NCBI GenBank assembly: GCA_030614005.1
Contig: JAUWKS010000010.1
Span: forward strand, 36,350 to 68,349
Direction of reading: 5' to 3'
DNA length: 32,000 nt
Source: Candidatus Heimdallarchaeota archaeon
GTDB taxonomy: Archaea; Asgardarchaeota; Heimdallarchaeia; JABLTI01
In this document: positions 3,124-11,975 of the stretch, in pieces
Layout: every line of letters starts with the position of its first letter
Numbering within the stretch: position 1 is the first letter of the stretch
Program-made: the position numbers and the translations under genes
The notes under the pieces: generated by a model
What the model was told of the DNA's origin: nothing
Databases searched by the model: none
Seen by the model: only the letters and a program-made list of their open reading frames with translations

Positions 3124-3232
3124 ATCTCTTTTATTTTTAAAAAATAACCTTTTTTTTAGACTTTATTAACAACGTAAACTAAATTACAACTGGATAAGGA
3201 ATAAAATAAAAAGAATTTTTAGAAAGAAAGCA

Positions 3233-5191
3233 TTACACTCTCTTTCTCTTTACTGAAACAATAATAACAATAGTGAGTATTAATACTAATGTACCACCAC
3301 CAGCACCTAAAATAATATAGAATGTTGTTGACTGGAAGAAATTTGGTTCAGATGATGTTGTTGGTAAATTTTGTACAGTTATTGATATTGTATCTGATGA
3401 CGACAATCCAACATTGTCAAATAGAGTTACTTGTATTGTATATGTCCCTAATTCGTCTAAACTTAACAGATAAGTCGTAATTGGCATATTTACTGTAGCT
3501 TCCAATACAGAGTTCACTCTTACTTCTGCATAATCATATCCTGATGAGCTATCAACAAAGTTCCAATCGATTTGAACATCACCAGGTTCCATTACATAAT
3601 CATCATCTGGTGCAGTGATTATCACTGTAGGATTTGTTGAATCAATATTGATTTGGAAATGAACAGGATCTGCTATATTCCCTGCACCATCTAAAGTTGA
3701 AATATGAGCATACCATATTCCATCAGTTAACGTTGTTGATATACTACTTGATGATGTAAATGTACTGCTAATTGTTGGCACTGTTGATGGATTATGGTCT
3801 ACTACAATATAATACCCATTAACACCATTGACGTCAAATGGGGCATTCATGTTAAAAGTAGGACTTAGGTTAGTATACCATTCTGAAGGGTTTGCATGTG
3901 GTGTAACAGTTACGTCAGGTTGATAAACAGTACAATCATAATCTATTGTCAGGAAAGGATCACCTAAAATAACCATACCGTAAAACCATTCTAAATAATC
4001 AGATGGGGATACGGTTGTTATTGTTTGGAACCAATCTTCGAAAGCTTGACCAATAGTTTTGTCTAGAGCTAAAGGATCATAGAATGTTGCCCCGCCAAAC
4101 ATACCACCAGTTTTTGATGTGCCAATTACTGCTATTGAGCCGTTTCCTGAATAAAGATATGTCGTTGCTAAACAATCCGCAGCAATAGTATCTGCTCCTG
4201 AACAACAATACAAATTGTAAAAGTTTGCTGCAGGAATTGCTGCATGGATTTGAGCTGAAGTAACAGTTCCTTCACCAATACCTCCTGGACCAAAATAATG
4301 TTGAGCAGGCGATGAACCACTATGAACTGCAAGATGTACCCATTCATAATTTTGAGTCATCTTAGTCAACCAATCAGCAGCCGTTGTTAAAGTTGCTGGT
4401 GTATGGATATCTGTTCTTGTTGGGTAAGCATTATTCAACCAAGCGGGCCAATTGTCATATGTGCCATTTGCCCATGCTTGCCAATCATCATCGATATAGG
4501 TCATAGCTTGATGAGTTCTAGCATTAGTACCTATACGATAATTATGAATTTTAGTTAGTAAATTAACGATGTCTTGATCATTAGATAATCCACCTAGCGT
4601 TCTTGACGTAGCATCTATTCGTCCAAGATAAATTTCTGGATAAATATCACCTGTACCAGCTGAGTGTATATCATAAATACCATCTGGTTCGGTATCAGTC
4701 CATGTGCCGTCCAAATCAGTTAGAAATAATTCACATAGAAAAGTTTCAGCTGCCCAAGGAATTGTTCCAGTTTTTGCCGGATGGTAAAATAAAGCAGATG
4801 GCAAATTACCTATTAAAACAACACCTGATATGCCAAAATTAGTATACCAGAGAGAGATTTTAGTTTTTAATGCTACAATATTTGAAGCTCCTGTAGAATC
4901 TAAAACAACAGTATAACCAGTATAATTCAAATCTTGAGCATATTGGTTTATTGCTGCTTGTGCTGCAGGCACCACCCAAATAGAAGGGTCAACAATTATT
5001 CCTACAGTTTCACCATTGTAACCTGAAACTTGTTTTAGTAAGGCTTTGGAATCTATCTGCGCCCCAATTATTTCATTATGTAATGTAATACTCTCTGTTG
5101 ATAATGGCGTTTTAGCACTTGCAAAACTGAGTGAGGAGAGTATTAACAATGATAGTATAAGTATAAGAATTTTTGATTTAAATTTAGACAT
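3233..5191 (-). CDS. Membrane-anchored C25 (gingipain-like) cysteine peptidase with C-terminal Ig-like domains
   Basis: Signal peptide; GVVLIGNLP, LTDLDG, PEIYLGRI, VHS (His codon 4322-4324), YCCSG (Cys codons 4202-4207), AVIG, ILGDP; C-terminal TM helix followed by KRKRV. Confidence 0.75.
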   Translation of the reverse strand: MSKFKSKILILILSLLILSSLSFASAKTPLSTESITLHNEIIGAQIDSKALLKQVSGYNGETVGIIVDPSIWVVPAAQAAINQYAQDLNYTGYTVVLDSTGASNIVALKTKISLWYTNFGISGVVLIGNLPSALFYHPAKTGTIPWAAETFLCELFLTDLDGTWTDTEPDGIYDIHSAGTGDIYPEIYLGRIDATSRTLGGLSNDQDIVNLLTKIHNYRIGTNARTHQAMTYIDDDWQAWANGTYDNWPAWLNNAYPTRTDIHTPATLTTAADWLTKMTQNYEWVHLAVHSGSSPAQHYFGPGGIGEGTVTSAQIHAAIPAANFYNLYCCSGADTIAADCLATTYLYSGNGSIAVIGTSKTGGMFGGATFYDPLALDKTIGQAFEDWFQTITTVSPSDYLEWFYGMVILGDPFLTIDYDCTVYQPDVTVTPHANPSEWYTNLSPTFNMNAPFDVNGVNGYYIVVDHNPSTVPTISSTFTSSSSISTTLTDGIWYAHISTLDGAGNIADPVHFQINIDSTNPTVIITAPDDDYVMEPGDVQIDWNFVDSSSGYDYAEVRVNSVLEATVNMPITTYLLSLDELGTYTIQVTLFDNVGLSSSDTISITVQNLPTTSSEPNFFQSTTFYIILGAGGGTLVLILTIVIIVSVKRKRV

Positions 5192-5464
5192 GAAAAATAA
5201 TTATTCATTTTCAAATATATACGTATCCTATGCGACAATGCTAAAGTAAATGTAGTTATTATTTATGTTTTATTTAAAACCAATCAGATTGATTGTTTAT
5301 AGTTCAGAATATAGACATAACCTAGACTGTCTCCACATACAATTGTATTTTTATCTTTAACATCTAACCTGCTTTAAATGAAAATAATTTTATCGAATGG
5401 ACATATCTTGCTGTTATACTATTAATGTGCTTTGTTGTATGCCATTCGATTAGCAGCTAAAATT

Positions 5465-5489
5465 GAGGAGTAGTTTTAATTTACTCCTC
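5465..5489 (-). terminator. Perfect 8-bp inverted repeat overlapping the stop of the RelA-domain gene; possible terminator or stabilising hairpin
   Basis: GAGGAGTA (5465-5472) / TACTCCTC (5482-5489), 9-nt loop; only a short AATTTT tract follows on the minus strand. Confidence 0.35.
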
Positions 5490-7499
5490 GATAAATTTCT
5501 TTATTCCTTTTTCAGTATTTGGTACAGCAATTATTTCAGAAAGCATCGAATTTTTCTTATCAGGTTGAAGAGCAAGATTCCATTCCACATTCTGTAATAA
5601 ATAATCAGCAGAACCACCACTTTCAGCGACTAAACCAACTTGTGCACAAAGTAGAATTGCTAAACGATATTCAAAGGATGATATCTTTCCTCCAGCAAAA
5701 CCCAAAACCTTAACATCTTCAGGTTTGATTTTATTCTGCAGAATATTTTTCCAATAAGTTATTACTTGTCGAATGCTAAAATTATTACCAGTCGTTTTAA
5801 CAATCTGTGTGTACCTGGAATCTATCTGAACCTCTTCCGGAATATTCTCTGGAACAAATCCTATTGATTTAATGTTTTTAGCATATTTTTCTTGTAAATC
5901 TCCAACTATACCACAAACTCCACCTAACGTTCCACCTGAAATCAGTGTTCCTGTATACTTTGGAAATGATTTAAGCAATTTTTCTTTGAATAAATTGATA
6001 CTCTCATTAGATGAGATTGTTGAACTACCAGCTAATATGATAATTGGTAATTCCATTGAGAGAACATCAGTATTAGACTTTAGAAACTCATCTTTTATTT
6101 TTTGATTTCCAAATTTATACGCAGCACCTATTGTCAATAGGTCTTCAATAAATGATAAATCAGGTAATTTCTCTCGAACAACATCGAAAAGAGAGAGGGT
6201 TTTCAAAGTAGTAGCAATCATCCAACTTTCGCTGCTATACTTTATTGCTGCTAAATAATTATTATAAGCTACCTCGCTTTCCCCAATGAGCATGTGTAAA
6301 AGGCCAATATCAAAATATGCCCAAGGTAAATTGATTTTGTGATTTATTTGCTTTTGACATTTCTCTATCACTTTTCGAATGATTGAATACGTAAAACTAA
6401 TGAAACCCAAGCTTTTCTGTTTTTTTATTTCAAGTGCAAGATAGTTTGTTGTAGCATAAGGGTTAGAAGGTTCAATTTCGGATGCTTTGCGATAGTAATT
6501 CAAAGCCTTCTCTTCATCAATCTCTTTCCATTGACCACCAAGGACACAATACGTATCTGCATCTTCGGGATTAATTTCTAATGCTTTTTCTAAATAGCTA
6601 ATTCCCTTTTGATAATCTTCACTTTCTACTTCATTCTTTTTACACAATGCCAAACCAATTTCCCGCAAGATAATACTATTATTGCTATCAATAAAAGCAG
6701 ATAAAATCTCAATCATTTTATCCCATTTTTCCACGTATCTTAACAGATAGGCATAACGGATTACAGTGGAGATATCTGTTTGGTCAGCTTTAAACACAAT
6801 AGACATTTTTTCTAGCTCTTTTTCTAATTGCTCCCCAGATAGATATGCACCATAATTTTCCTGAAAATCAGTCATATCATTTATCATTTCTTGAAAGTCA
6901 TGATCAGTGCTTTCTAAAACAGCTGCCACTCGATAAGATTTTCTTTGTAAATGTTTAGGAATAGTGAAATCGCCTTTATATTGTGTATCATGTTGTATTT
7001 GAGCCCAACCATGCTGGAGAAGTGTTCGAATTTGAATTTCAATAGAAAAGTCATAAAACCGTTCCGGAAAGGTTAAACCATCAAGTAAAGAACTACCTTT
7101 TTTCAAGCGGATAATATAATGATTTGAAAGATAGCCAAATTCGCTGACACTTAGTCTTTCTAATTTATCTTCACTGTGTTCAAGACTAATAATAAAATTC
7201 TGCTCAATAACTTCACAAGTCTTCTTGACATCATCAATTGAATCAAGAATAATTCGTGATCCACAGAGATCAGTCATATCTTCAATGGGATTTGAGTATT
7301 TGTCTATTTTTCTAAAAATCTTCTCAGAAAAACTCGCAATTGTTTTTGCACGTGCTTGAATGATACCATGAAGAGAGTATTGTTTTAGCAATTTTGACAG
7401 TACTTTCTTTATCAATTCAGCATATTCTATGTAATCTCCTCTTTTTTCTTTAAAGAGAGCTATTTGTGTTTCAATAAAATCTTGCTGTTGTTTTATCAT
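5481..7499 (-). CDS. RelA/SpoT synthetase-domain protein fused to TPR repeats and a C-terminal SLOG (Smf/DprA-LOG)-like domain
   Basis: RAKTIASFSEK (50-60), DLCGSR (77-82), GYLSNH (122-127), EIQIRT..QH.WA..QHD..YK (154-175); TPR motifs (YLEKALEINPEDADTYCVLG, ALNYYRKASEIEPSN, WAYFDIG); SLOG-like IILAGS, LISGGTLGGVCGIVG, IGFVP, GFAGGKISSFE, ESGGSAD. Confidence 0.85.
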   Translation of the reverse strand: MIKQQQDFIETQIALFKEKRGDYIEYAELIKKVLSKLLKQYSLHGIIQARAKTIASFSEKIFRKIDKYSNPIEDMTDLCGSRIILDSIDDVKKTCEVIEQNFIISLEHSEDKLERLSVSEFGYLSNHYIIRLKKGSSLLDGLTFPERFYDFSIEIQIRTLLQHGWAQIQHDTQYKGDFTIPKHLQRKSYRVAAVLESTDHDFQEMINDMTDFQENYGAYLSGEQLEKELEKMSIVFKADQTDISTVIRYAYLLRYVEKWDKMIEILSAFIDSNNSIILREIGLALCKKNEVESEDYQKGISYLEKALEINPEDADTYCVLGGQWKEIDEEKALNYYRKASEIEPSNPYATTNYLALEIKKQKSLGFISFTYSIIRKVIEKCQKQINHKINLPWAYFDIGLLHMLIGESEVAYNNYLAAIKYSSESWMIATTLKTLSLFDVVREKLPDLSFIEDLLTIGAAYKFGNQKIKDEFLKSNTDVLSMELPIIILAGSSTISSNESINLFKEKLLKSFPKYTGTLISGGTLGGVCGIVGDLQEKYAKNIKSIGFVPENIPEEVQIDSRYTQIVKTTGNNFSIRQVITYWKNILQNKIKPEDVKVLGFAGGKISSFEYRLAILLCAQVGLVAESGGSADYLLQNVEWNLALQPDKKNSMLSEIIAVPNTEKGIKKFIEE

Positions 7500-7609
7500 G
7501 CGAGTTCACTTGGTATTTTATAGGTTCTCAAGAAAATTCACTATTAAAAATTCTTTTTGTTAATAACATAATCTTAAGATATAAAAAAAGGGAAAAAGTA
7601 AGAAAGAAA

Positions 7610-10600
7610 TCATCGTTTCTTTCTTATTAATGCTAGAGCTAACACTGCAACAATGGGTAATAGAGCAAGTAATGTAGTATTACTAGTTGAATGCGCGAGA
7701 ACTGTAAAGCTGTAATAAGCGCCTCCGTTGTCGTCTGTTGCGGTATTAGTATTTGGTGAATCATCTGTTGCTGTGATATAAAATTCAATTAAATCAGCAG
7801 CAGCAAATGTACCAATTGTTGTTTTGTATTGATCACCTGAAATGAGAAGCATTGTTGTTGTTGTCCAAGTTCCTCCGTTTGTTCTGTAGTGAAGAACAAC
7901 TGAACTGATTCCGTTTAGGTCACTCACTGTACAAGTGATATTTACTAAATCAGTATCAGAAGGTGCATTTGGATTATATTCAATGTCACTAATCGTTGGT
8001 GCTGTAACATCACTAGAAGCAATGGTGAAAGTGTAGTAATTTCCAGAATTATCGTCTGTAGCATTGTTGTGCGTTATATAAGAATCAGTTGCGTTGATAT
8101 AATATTCAATATCTGCAGCATAAGCAAAAGAACCGATTGATACTTCATAGGTACTTCCAGTGGTGAGGGTCATACTTGCATCTGTCCAAGAACCACTATT
8201 CACTCTATAATAGAGGGTAACGGATTGAACACCACTTAGATCAGTAACAGCGCAGCTAATAATTACGGTTTCTGCATCTGTAGGATTTGTGGGAGTATGA
8301 ACTATATCATTTATCGTTGGACCGGAAACATCACTTGCACCTATGGTGAAGCTATAATATGAACCACCATTATTATCGGTTGCAATATTGTGTGTTTCAT
8401 AATTGTCAACAGCTGTGATATAATATTCTATGAAATCTTCATACGCAAATAAACCAATAGTTGCATTATAGGTGCTATCAACAATATTCGTCATTGATAC
8501 ACTCATCCAATCACCGCCATCTATTCTGTAGTAGAGAGTAACGGATTGAACACCACTTGGATCTGTAACATCGCAGTTTATAGTTATAGTTTCAAGTTCT
8601 GTTGGTGTTGCTGGTTGGTGTAAAATGTTTTCAATTGTTGGTCCGTCAATATCACTCGCTTCAATGGTGAAACTGTAATATATGCCACTATTGTCATCTG
8701 TTGCTTCATTGTGGTTTGGAGAATCATCTACTGCGACAATATAGTACTCTATTTCATCATCATAAGCAAATGATCCAATTGTTGCTTCGTAGGTAGAACC
8801 AGATGTAAAGGTCATACTGACATCAGTCCAAGAACCACCATTGATGCGATAATATAATGTAACCGATTGAATACCATTAGCATCATAAACATCACAACTG
8901 ATTGTTATTGTTTCAGTGTCATTAGCTGGTTCAGGAGTCTGTGAAATAGCTGAAATGGTTGGTCCGGTAACGTCGCTTGAAACAACGGTGAAGCTGTAAT
9001 ATGCTCCTCCATTATCTTCTGTGGCAATATTAGGATTGATACATGAATCATTGGCTGAGATGAAAAATTCGACTAAATCATCATAGGTAAATGTTCCTAA
9101 ACTTACTTCATATTGATTGTCAATAGCCCATATCATGGTGATATTCGTCCATTCTCCACTATTAACACGATAGTGTAGAGTAACTATATCGAGACCATTG
9201 CTATCTGTAACATTGCAATAAACAAACACTTCTTCTAAATCGGTTGGAGAGGGGTCAAATACTACATCAGTTATTTCTGGTGCTGTTGTATCGACTTGGA
9301 AATTCCAAACATCGCTCCAATCACCCCAATTTTCAGCGCCGTCTTTTGCGCGAACACGCCAATAATAAACATCATCATCCAATGAAGTTATTGCAGTATA
9401 ATATGTATCAGTTGTGTATATAGCTATTGCTGTGCTCAAAAAGTCTGTGTCATTATCTACTTGCAACTGATAAAGTACCGCTCCAGTTTCAGAAGACCAT
9501 TCCAAGTATGGTGTTGGATCACTATCTATTGAATTATTGCTGGGTGTTAATAGTGTTAATGTTGCTGGTGGTGTAGTGTCAATTTCAAAATGCCAAGTTG
9601 TACTCCAAGATCCCCAATTACCTGCGGCATCTCGTGCTTGAACACGCCAATAATAGGTGTTTTCACCTAATGTCGTACAAGTGTAACTGCTAGAAGATGT
9701 ATAGTAATTAACATTTAGTGAGCTAAAATCAGCATTATTATCTACTTGAACATGGTATTGCGTTGCTGTAGCCACTGTTGACCAATCAAGATACGGTGTT
9801 TGATCATTAGTCATTGTTCCGTCTGTAGGTGCAAATAATGTCGGAATACCCGGTGCTATATTATCAATAGTGAAATATCTATAAGAACTAAAACTACCCC
9901 AAGATCCTCGATAATCTTGTGCACGAACGCGCCAATACCAAGTATCACTTGATAGTGTAAATGTGCGAGAAGTTCCTGCAAGGCTATAACTATATGGACT
10001 ACTGAAACTTGGGTTATCATCCACTTGAACATTATATGCTGATGCAGTTGATTTTGCGTTCCAACTTAAAGTTAAGGTGCTAGACTGTGTTAAGTATCCA
10101 TTATATGGTGAATTCAAAGATGGTGGTGTGGTGTCAACTCTGAAATATTTATAAGAACTATAACTGCCCCAATTTCCTAATGAATCTTGTGCACAAACAC
10201 GCCAATACCAATTTCTATTTGATAAAGCAGAGGACCAATAACAATAAGTATTTGATGTAGTTATAGTATTTGCACCAGTGAAACCTGAGTTATCAGCCAC
10301 TTGAAGCTTGTATAGTACTGCAGTTGAAGATGGACCCCAATCTAAATATGGTGTTGAATCATATATTGTTGATCCATACGATGGTGAATATAAAGTTGGT
10401 GGGTTTGGCCCTGTTGAATCAAGAGTGAAATGCCATTCAGAACTCCACACACTCCAAAAACCCCATTCATTATACGACCGAACTCGCCAATAATAAGTAT
10501 CATCATTTAAATGATCACATTCGATATAAGTAGTATATCCTGTACCAACATCTGTTATTTCATTAAATTCCATACTTGAAAAATCAGCATTATTATCTAC

Positions 10601-10867
10601 TTGGATTCGATAGCGAATTGAGTCAGATACATAATTCCAGTCTAATACTGGTGTGTCATCAATTATGGTTGCTCCATTAGAAGGACTATGCAGTGTTGGT
10701 GCGTCAATTAGGGGAGAAAAGCCAGGATTGTCACCAATTGGTTCTCCAAGGGCATCAACTTGAATATTTGATGCTTGTTCAGCGTTCACAGATAAAGTGC
10801 TAGGTAATGTCATACATAAAATAAATATTATTACCATTAGTTTTGTAAAAGGTATACTCTTCCTCAA
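7610..10867 (-). CDS. Cell-surface protein: signal peptide, 5 fibronectin type III repeats, 5 Ig-like repeats, C-terminal TM+RKKR anchor
   Basis: Five P.L..P...TP.L.W...Y..QV....F...YWRV.A....WG.WS repeats; five PTI....P...V.I.C.V.D..G...V.L.YR.N.G.W...M...Y...IG.F...E.YI.A.D...TDDN.G.YYSFT repeats; TTG start with GGAGTG SD. Confidence 0.9.
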   Translation of the reverse strand: MRKSIPFTKLMVIIFILCMTLPSTLSVNAEQASNIQVDALGEPIGDNPGFSPLIDAPTLHSPSNGATIIDDTPVLDWNYVSDSIRYRIQVDNNADFSSMEFNEITDVGTGYTTYIECDHLNDDTYYWRVRSYNEWGFWSVWSSEWHFTLDSTGPNPPTLYSPSYGSTIYDSTPYLDWGPSSTAVLYKLQVADNSGFTGANTITTSNTYCYWSSALSNRNWYWRVCAQDSLGNWGSYSSYKYFRVDTTPPSLNSPYNGYLTQSSTLTLSWNAKSTASAYNVQVDDNPSFSSPYSYSLAGTSRTFTLSSDTWYWRVRAQDYRGSWGSFSSYRYFTIDNIAPGIPTLFAPTDGTMTNDQTPYLDWSTVATATQYHVQVDNNADFSSLNVNYYTSSSSYTCTTLGENTYYWRVQARDAAGNWGSWSTTWHFEIDTTPPATLTLLTPSNNSIDSDPTPYLEWSSETGAVLYQLQVDNDTDFLSTAIAIYTTDTYYTAITSLDDDVYYWRVRAKDGAENWGDWSDVWNFQVDTTAPEITDVVFDPSPTDLEEVFVYCNVTDSNGLDIVTLHYRVNSGEWTNITMIWAIDNQYEVSLGTFTYDDLVEFFISANDSCINPNIATEDNGGAYYSFTVVSSDVTGPTISAISQTPEPANDTETITISCDVYDANGIQSVTLYYRINGGSWTDVSMTFTSGSTYEATIGSFAYDDEIEYYIVAVDDSPNHNEATDDNSGIYYSFTIEASDIDGPTIENILHQPATPTELETITINCDVTDPSGVQSVTLYYRIDGGDWMSVSMTNIVDSTYNATIGLFAYEDFIEYYITAVDNYETHNIATDNNGGSYYSFTIGASDVSGPTINDIVHTPTNPTDAETVIISCAVTDLSGVQSVTLYYRVNSGSWTDASMTLTTGSTYEVSIGSFAYAADIEYYINATDSYITHNNATDDNSGNYYTFTIASSDVTAPTISDIEYNPNAPSDTDLVNITCTVSDLNGISSVVLHYRTNGGTWTTTTMLLISGDQYKTTIGTFAAADLIEFYITATDDSPNTNTATDDNGGAYYSFTVLAHSTSNTTLLALLPIVAVLALALIRKKR

Positions 10868-11000: not shown

Positions 11001-11975
11001 TTAAATTCTTTGTAAATCTACTTCAAATTGAGCTAGAGCAGTTGGTAAAACTTGTTCCTTGGTAATTTCTGCAAAAGCTGTACCAATAATACCTGTCAGT
11101 AATTCCCTATCGTTTTCAGCAGTATTCATATAAAAGAATCTGCCATTGGGTATTAACTTTGCATAGTTATAGAAAGTCATTCCAGTATGATATTTATCTT
11201 TAGGACCATGAAAAATAAAAACCTCATTTTCAATTTTCGGTAAATCAGGAACGAGATTCAGTTTTCTATTATTAAGACAAGCTTTCCGCCATTTAAAGGG
11301 AACAGCTCCTCGTACAAAATCCATGTTTCTCTCTTTCTGAGATTCGTTTTTCATTTTAGACATGATTAATTTTGCGAATACGAAACGGAACGCACCAATT
11401 ACAATTGGTGGCATTATTGGTAACACCCAATTAATCCAGAATTTTTCGTAGGTCCATATACAAACAGGATCTAACACAACTGTTGTTGGAGGATTAAAAT
11501 ATTGTTTAATTAGTCCTTCTATTGTTGCTCCGCCACAGTAGCTAGACCCAACCATCACATAATCTCTCTTATCTAAACCCAGATATTTTATCGCAACACC
11601 AATATCTTGAGCAGTTTTATTAATTGAAAAATCAGCTTTTCGATGTTTTCTTATATTACTAGATGCCTTTTCTCTTGTCTCGAGATGATAATATTCAGCA
11701 AAACCATGATGTGGTTTATGAAATTTCCTCCAAGTCCAGGGAGTAGTAGCAAATCCTGGAACAAAAAGAATTGGTCTTTTGGTTTTCGTTTTTTCAAGTT
11801 TGTGATGAAAAACCTTTATTTCTCCATCTTCTACTGGTACATAAATAATTTCACATTCTCCTTCATCATAAAAATTAGGAACATCTCTTCTCCCTGCATC
11901 TAATAATTTCTTAATTTCAGCTTCTTGCTTTTGTGTTAAAACAAATTCATTCTCGTTCTCAGACATTCTTAACAT
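11001..11975 (-). CDS. Alpha/beta hydrolase fold protein with non-canonical catalytic motifs
   Basis: ILFVPGF oxyanion region, VMVGSSYCGG elbow, IFHGPKD acid motif; start may be Met4. Confidence 0.8.
   Translation of the reverse strand: MLRMSENENEFVLTQKQEAEIKKLLDAGRRDVPNFYDEGECEIIYVPVEDGEIKVFHHKLEKTKTKRPILFVPGFATTPWTWRKFHKPHHGFAEYYHLETREKASSNIRKHRKADFSINKTAQDIGVAIKYLGLDKRDYVMVGSSYCGGATIEGLIKQYFNPPTTVVLDPVCIWTYEKFWINWVLPIMPPIVIGAFRFVFAKLIMSKMKNESQKERNMDFVRGAVPFKWRKACLNNRKLNLVPDLPKIENEVFIFHGPKDKYHTGMTFYNYAKLIPNGRFFYMNTAENDRELLTGIIGTAFAEITKEQVLPTALAQFEVDLQRI

Follow-up and report, generated by a model that had tools for sequence, protein, structure and literature searches.

A RelA/SpoT synthetase fused to TPR-S and SLOG domains in a Heimdall-group archaeon: a candidate sensor-gated alarmone synthetase

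The window analysed here, a stretch of 32,000 nucleotides (nt) from a Candidatus Heimdallarchaeota archaeon (GenBank assembly GCA_030614005.1, contig JAUWKS010000010.1, positions 36,350 to 68,349), carries at positions 5481-7499 on its minus strand a gene for a RelA/SpoT synthetase fused to a TPR-S region and an LSDAT-type SLOG domain. The listing of open reading frames (ORFs) and the translation give one unbroken frame of 672 codons, and the plus-strand reading of the same interval has stops throughout. The complete coding sequence (672 amino acids (aa) and a TAA stop), supported by Pfam, by an AlphaFold2 (AF2) model and by the ratio of non-synonymous to synonymous substitution rates (dN/dS), divides into a predicted pyrophosphokinase domain of the small alarmone synthetase (SAS) type with a long N-terminal helix (aa 1-215, positions 6855-7499), an all-helical TPR region (aa 216-475, positions 6075-6854) and the SLOG domain (aa 484-672, positions 5484-6050), all on the minus strand. 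An earlier note on this DNA, made from the sequence alone (the original prediction), had proposed these three domains in this order, which both Pfam and the structure models bear out. It had also stated that HD hydrolase, TGS and ACT domains are lacking, and a Pfam scan of the 672-aa protein indeed matched none of the three, nor a SIR2 domain. The full-length AF2 model is compact and confident, with a predicted local distance difference test score (pLDDT) of 91.8 and a predicted template modelling (TM) score (pTM) of 0.84. Its likeness to SPINDLY/OGT was set aside as a coincidence of TPRs with a Rossmann-like domain (TM score <=0.21, root-mean-square deviation (rmsd) >18 Å). An archaeal origin of the gene is supported, given that its best homologues are proteins of Heimdallarchaeota metagenome-assembled genomes (MAGs), at 97% and 65% identity.

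The synthetase domain carries the clearest signal. Pfam RelA_SpoT (PF04607) matches aa 50-176 (positions 6972-7352) with an E value of 2e-17 and 63.9 bits against a cut-off of 27, and the motifs RxKxxxSxxxK, DxxGxR, GYxSxH, ExQxR and HxxxYK are all present. Each synthetase residue named in the original prediction was found and is conserved across 94 homologues, where R50, K52, K60, D77, G80, R82, G122, H127, E154, Q156 and K175 are invariant and 90% or more share S56, Y123, S125, R158, H170 and Y174. The SAS-like alpha/beta fold superposes on RelQ (PDB 5dec) with a TM score (TMt) of 0.82 and an rmsd of 2.8 Å over about 205 columns, and a sequence search of the PDB matched only RelQ and RelP structures (E 1e-13 to 4e-6), without any CapRel, FaRel2 or Tas1 chain even at E values up to 10. 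By structure, CapRel (7ztb) came at rank 46 (E 1.8e-5), after about 40 RelQ/RelP chains. The RelQ and RelP enzymes of Bacillus, Staphylococcus and Streptococcus (PDB 5dec, 6fgk, 6ewz, 2be3 and 3l9d) share the fold over aa 1-215 (TMt about 0.8, rmsd about 3 Å, 21-25% identity) together with the donor, acceptor and Mg2+ motifs. However, they are single-domain proteins of about 200-250 aa, whereas the window protein carries about 460 extra residues in its TPR-S and SLOG parts, and its gene is accessory and archaeal and remains below equivalog level on the RelQ/YjbM model NF053588 of NCBIfam (54 bits against a cut-off of 320). It is not a long RelA/SpoT homologue (RSH) either (TIGR00691, 22 bits against 499). 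The PADLOC candidate model PDC-S33 matches aa 6-166 (E 7.4e-19), but over 149 of its 349 positions (27-175), which correspond to the synthetase part only. Because all RSH synthetase motifs are present and the fold matches that of RelQ and RelP, the prediction of a catalytically competent, RelQ-like pyrophosphokinase is supported. The intact synthetase of the earlier note is thus supported; in sequence and fold it is nearest to the non-toxic (p)ppGpp synthetases RelQ and RelP, and not to CapRel or other toxSAS.

The central TPRs of the original prediction were recovered as well. Pfam TPR-S (PF20308) matches aa 259-356 with 34.4 bits against a cut-off of 27.6, the sole such match in the genome, and canonical TPRs (TPR_2, TPR_8) lie at about aa 293-353. 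In the full-length model the helices span aa 222-475, and consensus-TPR structures were matched.

The C-terminal domain, described earlier as a Rossmann-like domain with glycine-rich motifs of the SLOG type, is as modelled a SLOG fold of the TRPM (LSDAT) type. The AF2 model of aa 462-672, built with 66 sequences, has a mean pLDDT of 92.4, and the top Foldseek matches in the PDB are the N-terminal MHR1/2 regions of TRPM8, TRPM2, TRPM4 and TRPM3 (E 3.5e-8 to 1e-6, probability 1.0), with the LOG-like TM1055 also among the best fold matches (TMt 0.75). By sequence, Pfam LSDAT_prok (PF18171) matches aa 485-638 below its cut-off of 25.4 bits (18.3 bits in the full-length protein, 22.7 bits for the domain alone) and is found in 54 of 66 orthologous domains (best E value 7.8e-12). 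The two glycine-rich motifs are S521GGT..G527 and G603G..E610, and G517, G522, T524, G527, G603, G604, E610 and A614 are conserved in at least 90% of the 94 homologues. A profile search of the PDB with the SLOG alignment reached TRPM2 only below threshold (E 0.11-0.6); a match to the designed protein Tako8 in that search is a spurious repeat match. TRPM MHR1/2 has been equated with the LSDAT family of SLOG domains, and ADP-ribose (ADPR) binding has been reported there (PMC13143021; PMC7306681).

Locus, distribution and selection

The gene lies between genes for 652-aa and 1085-aa surface proteins with immunoglobulin-like (Ig) domains and carbohydrate-binding modules (CBM), separated from the next gene by 289 bp and from the upstream gene by 110 bp. 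The 110-bp spacer holds a TATA-box-like element, TATAAAAT, at positions 7515-7522 on the minus strand, 16-23 nt upstream of the ATG, which suggests that the gene has its own promoter and a leaderless or short-leader mRNA. At the other end, a terminator-like element (positions 5459-5489, minus strand) with a putative 7-bp stem, GAGGAGT / ACTCCTC, followed by a T-run, overlaps the stop codon. As judged from these surroundings, the window copy is a self-contained transcription unit that was gained or lost as a single-gene cassette and, having no accessory genes, would therefore act autonomously or with unlinked components. The original prediction had called it a stand-alone gene with neither a hydrolase nor an antitoxin beside it, in agreement with the Ig/CBM genes on both flanks; no adjacent, co-transcribed antitoxin gene, whether for a small protein or a small alarmone hydrolase, was seen at the window locus. 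Scans of the window for tRNA genes and Rfam families found nothing. The gene is the only RelA_SpoT gene of its genome, which is 90% complete and in which neither HD_4 nor RyR had a match. Generic MutT-like NUDIX genes on other contigs were considered as unlinked partners and set aside as not specific evidence.

A patchy distribution, unlike that of a housekeeping gene, had been foreseen and was observed. None of nine congeneric genomes holds a full-length homologue, and in a sample of the phylum only a single Loki-type family has full-length copies, in 14 of its 68 sampled genomes. In the congener G234 a stretch of about 2.3 kb (positions 5232-7575) is absent from the syntenic site: a single contig (C29) matches window positions 3176-5231 and 7576-10435 with 62 bp between them, and retains both flanking genes at 86% and 71% DNA identity. 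The indel thus comprises exactly this gene and its flanking signals, and a search for terminal direct or inverted repeats at its ends turned up no more than AT-rich matches at chance level. Another sample yielded a copy with the same neighbours that is 97% identical; 34 synonymous and 21 non-synonymous changes separate the two (dN/dS 0.15). The DNA of the gene recurs in marine sediment and cold-seep metagenomes of several studies, with no RNA data set listed among them. Given the low dN/dS and this recurrence, the gene is functional and maintained; it is real, under purifying selection and dispensable at the genus level.

The wider family and its Asgard clade

The window protein belongs to a large family, with about 108 homologues in a large protein collection; among 185,579 species genomes, at least 571 loci were found. 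The hosts are nearly all MAGs, both archaeal (Promethearchaeota (Loki), Hodarchaeota, Thermoplasmatota, Bathyarchaeia and methanogens) and bacterial (Chloroflexota, Gemmatimonadota, Planctomycetota, Actinomycetota, Verrucomicrobiota, Bacteroidota, Desulfobacterota, Bacillota and Pseudomonadota). The general layout is [NUDIX]-RelA/SpoT-TPR-S-LSDAT SLOG-[RyR], in which the C-terminal RyR extension is present at 52 of 83 loci and an N-terminal NUDIX domain is fused in other members.

Clustering the neighbouring ORFs of these 83 non-redundant loci without prior assumptions recovered several recurrent partners. At 35 loci a gene for a NUDIX protein of about 141 aa immediately precedes the family gene, at most 300 nt away and in the same orientation, and the NUDIX domains of the family are MutT/NudG/NudI-like. 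One NUDIX-fused member is followed by a gene for an HD_4 small alarmone hydrolase; together with the upstream or fused position of NUDIX, this makes a role of the NUDIX domain as nucleotide eraser plausible. TIR_2 or DUF4062 proteins, mostly fused to TPR, WD40 or STAND modules, are found in the flanks of 33 loci. Here, DUF4062 is counted as TIR-type on the Pfam clan assignment that we take it to have; a direct comparison with TIR_2, on our own small alignments, gave an hhalign probability of 0.3%, so the similarity is not confirmed. The closer a gene lies to the family gene, the more often it is of the TIR type: the share is 7.9% within 2.5 kb, 6.0% between 2.5 and 5 kb, 2.6% between 5 and 7.5 kb and zero (0 of 132 genes) between 7.5 and 10 kb. 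ClpB-like AAA+ proteins occur at 10 loci.

RyR-fused members are often flanked by further RyR proteins, namely TrkA_N...RyR proteins of about 594 aa (15 loci) and AAA_22...RyR proteins of about 879 aa (8 loci), at loci that include L030, L031, L034, L036, L038, L044-L046, L068, L073, L078 and L089. The RyR domain may be a homotypic adaptor that links the components.

Only 3 of the 55 loci with adequate flanks are without all of NUDIX, a TIR-type neighbour and RyR, so the one-gene form appears atypical for the family. The one-gene system of the original prediction fits the layout of the window copy, which has no accessory gene, but not the family at large, nor the Asgard relatives, whose genes are paired with TIR-type genes. 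Similarly, the predicted association with conflict systems was found in relatives, through TIR_2, DUF4062-STAND and NUDIX, but not at the window locus, which lies in no recognisable defence island. The patchy and scattered distribution, the clean indel and the TIR_2 and DUF4062 neighbours lead us to regard the family as one of accessory conflict or stress signalling.

In a maximum-likelihood tree (quick search, Shimodaira-Hasegawa-like approximate likelihood-ratio test (SH-aLRT) support), the window protein and the Heimdall homologue of 65% identity form a pair, placed in a clade dominated by Asgard sequences (support 100) from which both NUDIX and RyR are absent. The sister group of this clade consists of NUDIX-fused sequences from Planctomycetota and Woeseiaceae. 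Other archaeal members are interspersed among bacterial ones, a scatter that fits repeated horizontal transfer. At all seven other non-redundant loci of the Asgard clade with usable flanks, an immediately neighbouring gene of the same orientation encodes a TIR-type repeat protein: six Loki loci carry one to three tandem TPR-TIR_2 genes 40-64 nt upstream, and locus L104 has a DUF4062-STAND-TPR gene 32 nt upstream. Beside the 65% identical Heimdall homologue, a DUF4062-nSTAND1-WD40 gene follows 104 nt downstream. Because loci of this family are rarely bare (3 of 55) and the other Asgard-clade copies are TIR-paired, the window copy reads as a bare, orphan version.

Several relatives depart from the common architecture. 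At L104, in contig C38 of the Loki genome G170, a gene for a 700-aa paralogue (L104:3929-6031, minus strand) stands directly downstream of the full-length family gene; the paralogue has the TPR part, a degenerate SLOG domain that has lost SGGT and a C-terminal extension of about 150 aa, with neither RelA/SpoT nor any Pfam match. The same island also encodes the DUF4062-STAND-TPR protein (1330 aa), a TIR_2 protein (189 aa) and a leucine-rich repeat protein with a weak TIR-like match. In five Loki-family genomes (L107-L111; G147, G275, G206, G278 and G254) a second form of about 838-857 aa, at 33-37% identity, has a C-terminal extension that does not match the RyR profile, and TIR and NUDIX genes are absent nearby. 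A fungal member (P0103, Botryotinia convoluta, 629 aa, RelA_SpoT plus TPR) is 29% identical to the query in an alignment that covers 92% of it and may be the unplaced 'divRel' SAS of Ascomycota (Atkinson et al. 2011, PMC3153485); it forms a long branch in the tree, where its placement is unreliable. The ESM Atlas holds several clusters of RelA_SpoT plus TPR proteins of about 390-470 aa without SLOG, commonest in Spirochaetota, which may be a truncated sister architecture.

Proposed working and rival explanations

We propose, with middling confidence, that the window protein is a sensor-gated pyrophosphokinase of the SAS type from an accessory conflict or stress signalling family; the data show the architecture, the folds, the conservation of catalytic and ligand-pocket residues, the distribution, the gene neighbourhoods and the purifying selection, while its substrate and product, the ligand of its SLOG domain, the direction of regulation and the biological role are the parts that we infer. 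The RelQ-like domain would transfer pyrophosphate from ATP to the 3'-OH of a purine nucleotide and yield a (p)ppGpp- or (p)ppApp-like product, and TPR-S and SLOG would form one compact regulatory module that makes this activity conditional. Regulation in cis would fit the full-length model, given that it is compact and confident (pTM 0.84). The SLOG domain would bind a nucleotide, which could be the product of the enzyme itself or, as suggested by the gene pairing in Asgard relatives, an ADPR-type signal of a TIR-type partner. The TPRs may serve as a protein-binding or oligomerisation surface, and the alarmone-like product would arrest or re-programme the cell. Most relatives have a MutT-like NUDIX, either as a fused domain or as the product of the gene just upstream, which probably clears the nucleotide and sets a threshold. 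A more far-reaching version, which we put forward as speculative and think rather improbable, is that the Asgard clade forms the effector arm of an undescribed two-signal immune pathway, in which the ADPR-derived signal of a TIR-type sensor would act through the LSDAT SLOG domain on the RelQ-like synthetase to cause alarmone shutdown, with the window copy a partner-less, autonomous derivative. If true, archaeal relatives of eukaryotes would possess a prokaryotic equivalent of the module with which TRPM2 senses ADPR, coupled to the chemistry of the stringent response.

A number of observations weigh against the sensor-gated conflict enzyme that we propose. No NUDIX, RyR, TIR or hydrolase gene adjoins the window copy. 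PADLOC, run on ten window proteins, matched only an unrelated DNA methyltransferase 15 kb away and none of the neighbours, so no recognisable island was found. TIR_2 has no match anywhere in the genome, and its one DUF4062 protein (on contig C77) is unrelated to the partner of the Heimdall homologue, which leaves a model that depends on a partner's signal with no visible partner in this genome. In the SLOG domain, the window copy departs from the consensus at three conserved positions (Y548F, D585N and G618C), and the conserved glutamate and glycine motifs would suit a LOG-like enzyme as well as a sensor. In its catalytic domain the protein resembles housekeeping SAS enzymes that are not toxic, a likeness that fits a physiological role as well as an immune one. 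The enrichment of TIR-type genes close to the family genes is set against distance as an internal control and not against a genome-wide background, and it draws on related loci that are not independent. We found no biochemical data on any family member in the literature.

The sparse locus can also be explained by loss. In a Thoeris-like receptor-effector system, an adjacent TIR-type protein would make an ADPR-derived signal on infection, the SLOG domain would sense it and the RelA/SpoT domain would arrest growth; the window copy would then be an orphan whose signal generator is unlinked or lost. Such a system is consistent with the TPR-TIR_2 genes 40-64 nt upstream at the six Loki loci, with the DUF4062 genes at L104 (DUF4062-STAND-TPR) and beside the Heimdall homologue (DUF4062-nSTAND1-WD40), and with the match of the SLOG fold to ADPR-binding TRPM MHR1/2. 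Thoeris itself sets the precedent, since the SLOG domain of ThsA reportedly senses a cyclic ADPR isomer made by a TIR protein. In both cases SLOG is fused to an enzymatic output, and TIR-type genes adjoin those of the Asgard relatives. However, ThsA, which acts with the TIR protein ThsB, has a SIR2 NADase or a transmembrane effector as its output, whereas the window protein has an RSH synthetase, a SLOG domain of the LSDAT branch and TPR-S between the two. Moreover, the window holds no TIR gene, and the genome, with no TIR_2 and one unrelated DUF4062, keeps the gene under purifying selection; many family loci also have no TIR-like gene, and the relation of DUF4062 to TIR is not confirmed (hhalign 0.3%). 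We consider loss of a Thoeris-like partner unlikely. A physiological enzyme, one that makes a (p)ppGpp-type stress alarmone in an archaeon and integrates metabolic nucleotide cues through TPR and SLOG in the way that RelQ and RelP are regulated by nucleotides, would agree with the lack of defence genes near the gene in the window. Sequence and fold are closest to RelQ and RelP, degradation of the product could fall to the generic MutT-like NUDIX proteins encoded on other contigs, and archaeal and eukaryotic SAS without a dedicated hydrolase have been described, as has a ppGpp-degrading Nudix enzyme (Atkinson et al. 2011, PMC3153485). Against this stand the lack of the gene in each of the nine congeners searched, its absence at the syntenic site in G234, the sparse and scattered family (at least 571 matches in 185,579 species genomes) and its recurrence beside TIR-like and STAND genes; such patchiness, scatter and neighbours are typical of accessory conflict genes rather than of core physiology. 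We regard a purely physiological role as quite unlikely.

The original prediction, supported in part, proposed that the TPRs would sense a viral or stress protein and release the synthetase, with SLOG as in-cis receptor, effector or signal eraser. In its CapRel-like form, this scheme would make the protein a fused toxSAS that pyrophosphorylates tRNA 3' ends and stops translation, with the TPR-SLOG part as an in-cis antitoxin displaced when the TPRs bind a viral protein. CapRel(SJ46) and toxSAS systems do resemble the window protein in combining an RSH synthetase, by fusion or by pairing, with a regulatory unit that might hold it off until triggered, and the single-gene layout, the compact and confident multi-domain model, the PDC-S33 match (aa 6-166), the presence of 7ztb among the structural matches (E 1.8e-5) and the small upstream NUDIX gene of relatives, reminiscent of an antitoxin-toxin arrangement, point the same way. 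However, 7ztb ranks only 46th, after about 40 RelQ/RelP chains, no CapRel, FaRel2 or Tas1 chain was found by sequence at E values up to 10, PDC-S33 is covered over 149 of 349 positions only, the regulatory C-terminal part has no relation to the antitoxin domain of CapRel, the locus has no adjacent antitoxin gene, and nothing in the analysis points to tRNA as substrate. A CapRel-like toxin is very unlikely in our view. Still further from what we propose, the SLOG domain could itself be an enzyme, a LOG-like nucleotide N-glycosidase or processing enzyme that acts on the product of the synthetase in a two-step biosynthetic protein. The near-invariant E610 of the second motif, the conservation of both glycine-rich loops and the fold match to TM1055 (TMt 0.75) favour such an enzyme, but the profile and the top folds belong to the LSDAT/TRPM branch, for which only ligand binding has been reported (PMC13143021), and a separate NUDIX 'eraser' is a common partner; we give it the slimmest chance of the readings considered.

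Compared with known systems, the window protein falls within the RSH synthetase superfamily and has TPR-S and a SLOG fold, but neither it nor its locus belongs to the RelQ/RelP equivalogs, the long RSHs, the toxSAS toxin-antitoxin modules, CapRel or Thoeris. We regard it as a variant of known sensor-fused SAS enzymes and SLOG-sensor effectors. The pairing of LSDAT SLOG with NUDIX in the family mirrors TRPM2-type channels, which combine an MHR1/2 SLOG region with a C-terminal NUDT9-like NUDIX domain (PMC7306681). However, no channel is present, the family NUDIX is MutT/NudG/NudI-like and not ADPR-pyrophosphatase-like, the Asgard clade has no NUDIX, and the sequence link to TRPM2 is weak (E 0.11-0.6). 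Core-TPR proteins have been reported with TIR, YpsA-SLOG, LSDAT, patatin and calcineurin partners, and a TIR/TPR pair has anti-phage activity (bioRxiv 10.1101/2023.05.26.542521). Our literature search returned no experimental study of the RelA/SpoT-TPR-S-LSDAT family, although the papers that define the two domains lay outside the search, and surveys of the Asgard defensome made no mention of RelA, CapRel or SLOG systems. The two modules were reportedly defined by comparative genomics of conflict systems, LSDAT_prok by Burroughs et al. in 2015 and TPR-S by Burroughs and Aravind in 2020, and the RelA/SpoT-TPR-S-LSDAT architecture, we presume, may already be listed there.

To our knowledge, archaea are generally held to be without a stringent response, and RSH enzymes are rare oddities among them. 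Here, an intact RelQ-like synthetase is under selection in a Heimdall-group archaeon. The uncharacterised family to which it belongs is large, spans bacteria and archaea, and connects an alarmone synthetase with a nucleotide sensor of the TRPM type, a NUDIX hydrolase and immune genes of the TIR/STAND kind. If the proposed sensor gating is correct, alarmone synthesis would be a new output of SLOG- and TIR-based immune signalling, and the LSDAT domains of prokaryotes, which are related to the part of TRPM channels that binds ADPR, would gain a biochemical function. A single soluble protein would then allow direct tests of (p)ppNpp signalling in Asgard archaea. Should the protein instead sense metabolic stress, it would still be the first example of a multi-domain SAS under the in-cis control of a nucleotide-binding domain.

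Other genes around the indel site

The gene for the 1085-aa Ig/CBM surface protein (positions 7610-10867, minus strand) has paralogous segments of up to 86% DNA identity on another contig of its own genome (C119:32453-34531) and in congeners, and belongs to a diversifying family of surface proteins that frames the indel site. Further along the window, a 324-aa ORF (positions 11001-11975, minus strand) with no Pfam or PADLOC match represents a multi-copy family, with several copies at 65-73% DNA identity in each congener and on contigs C15 and C49 of its own genome.

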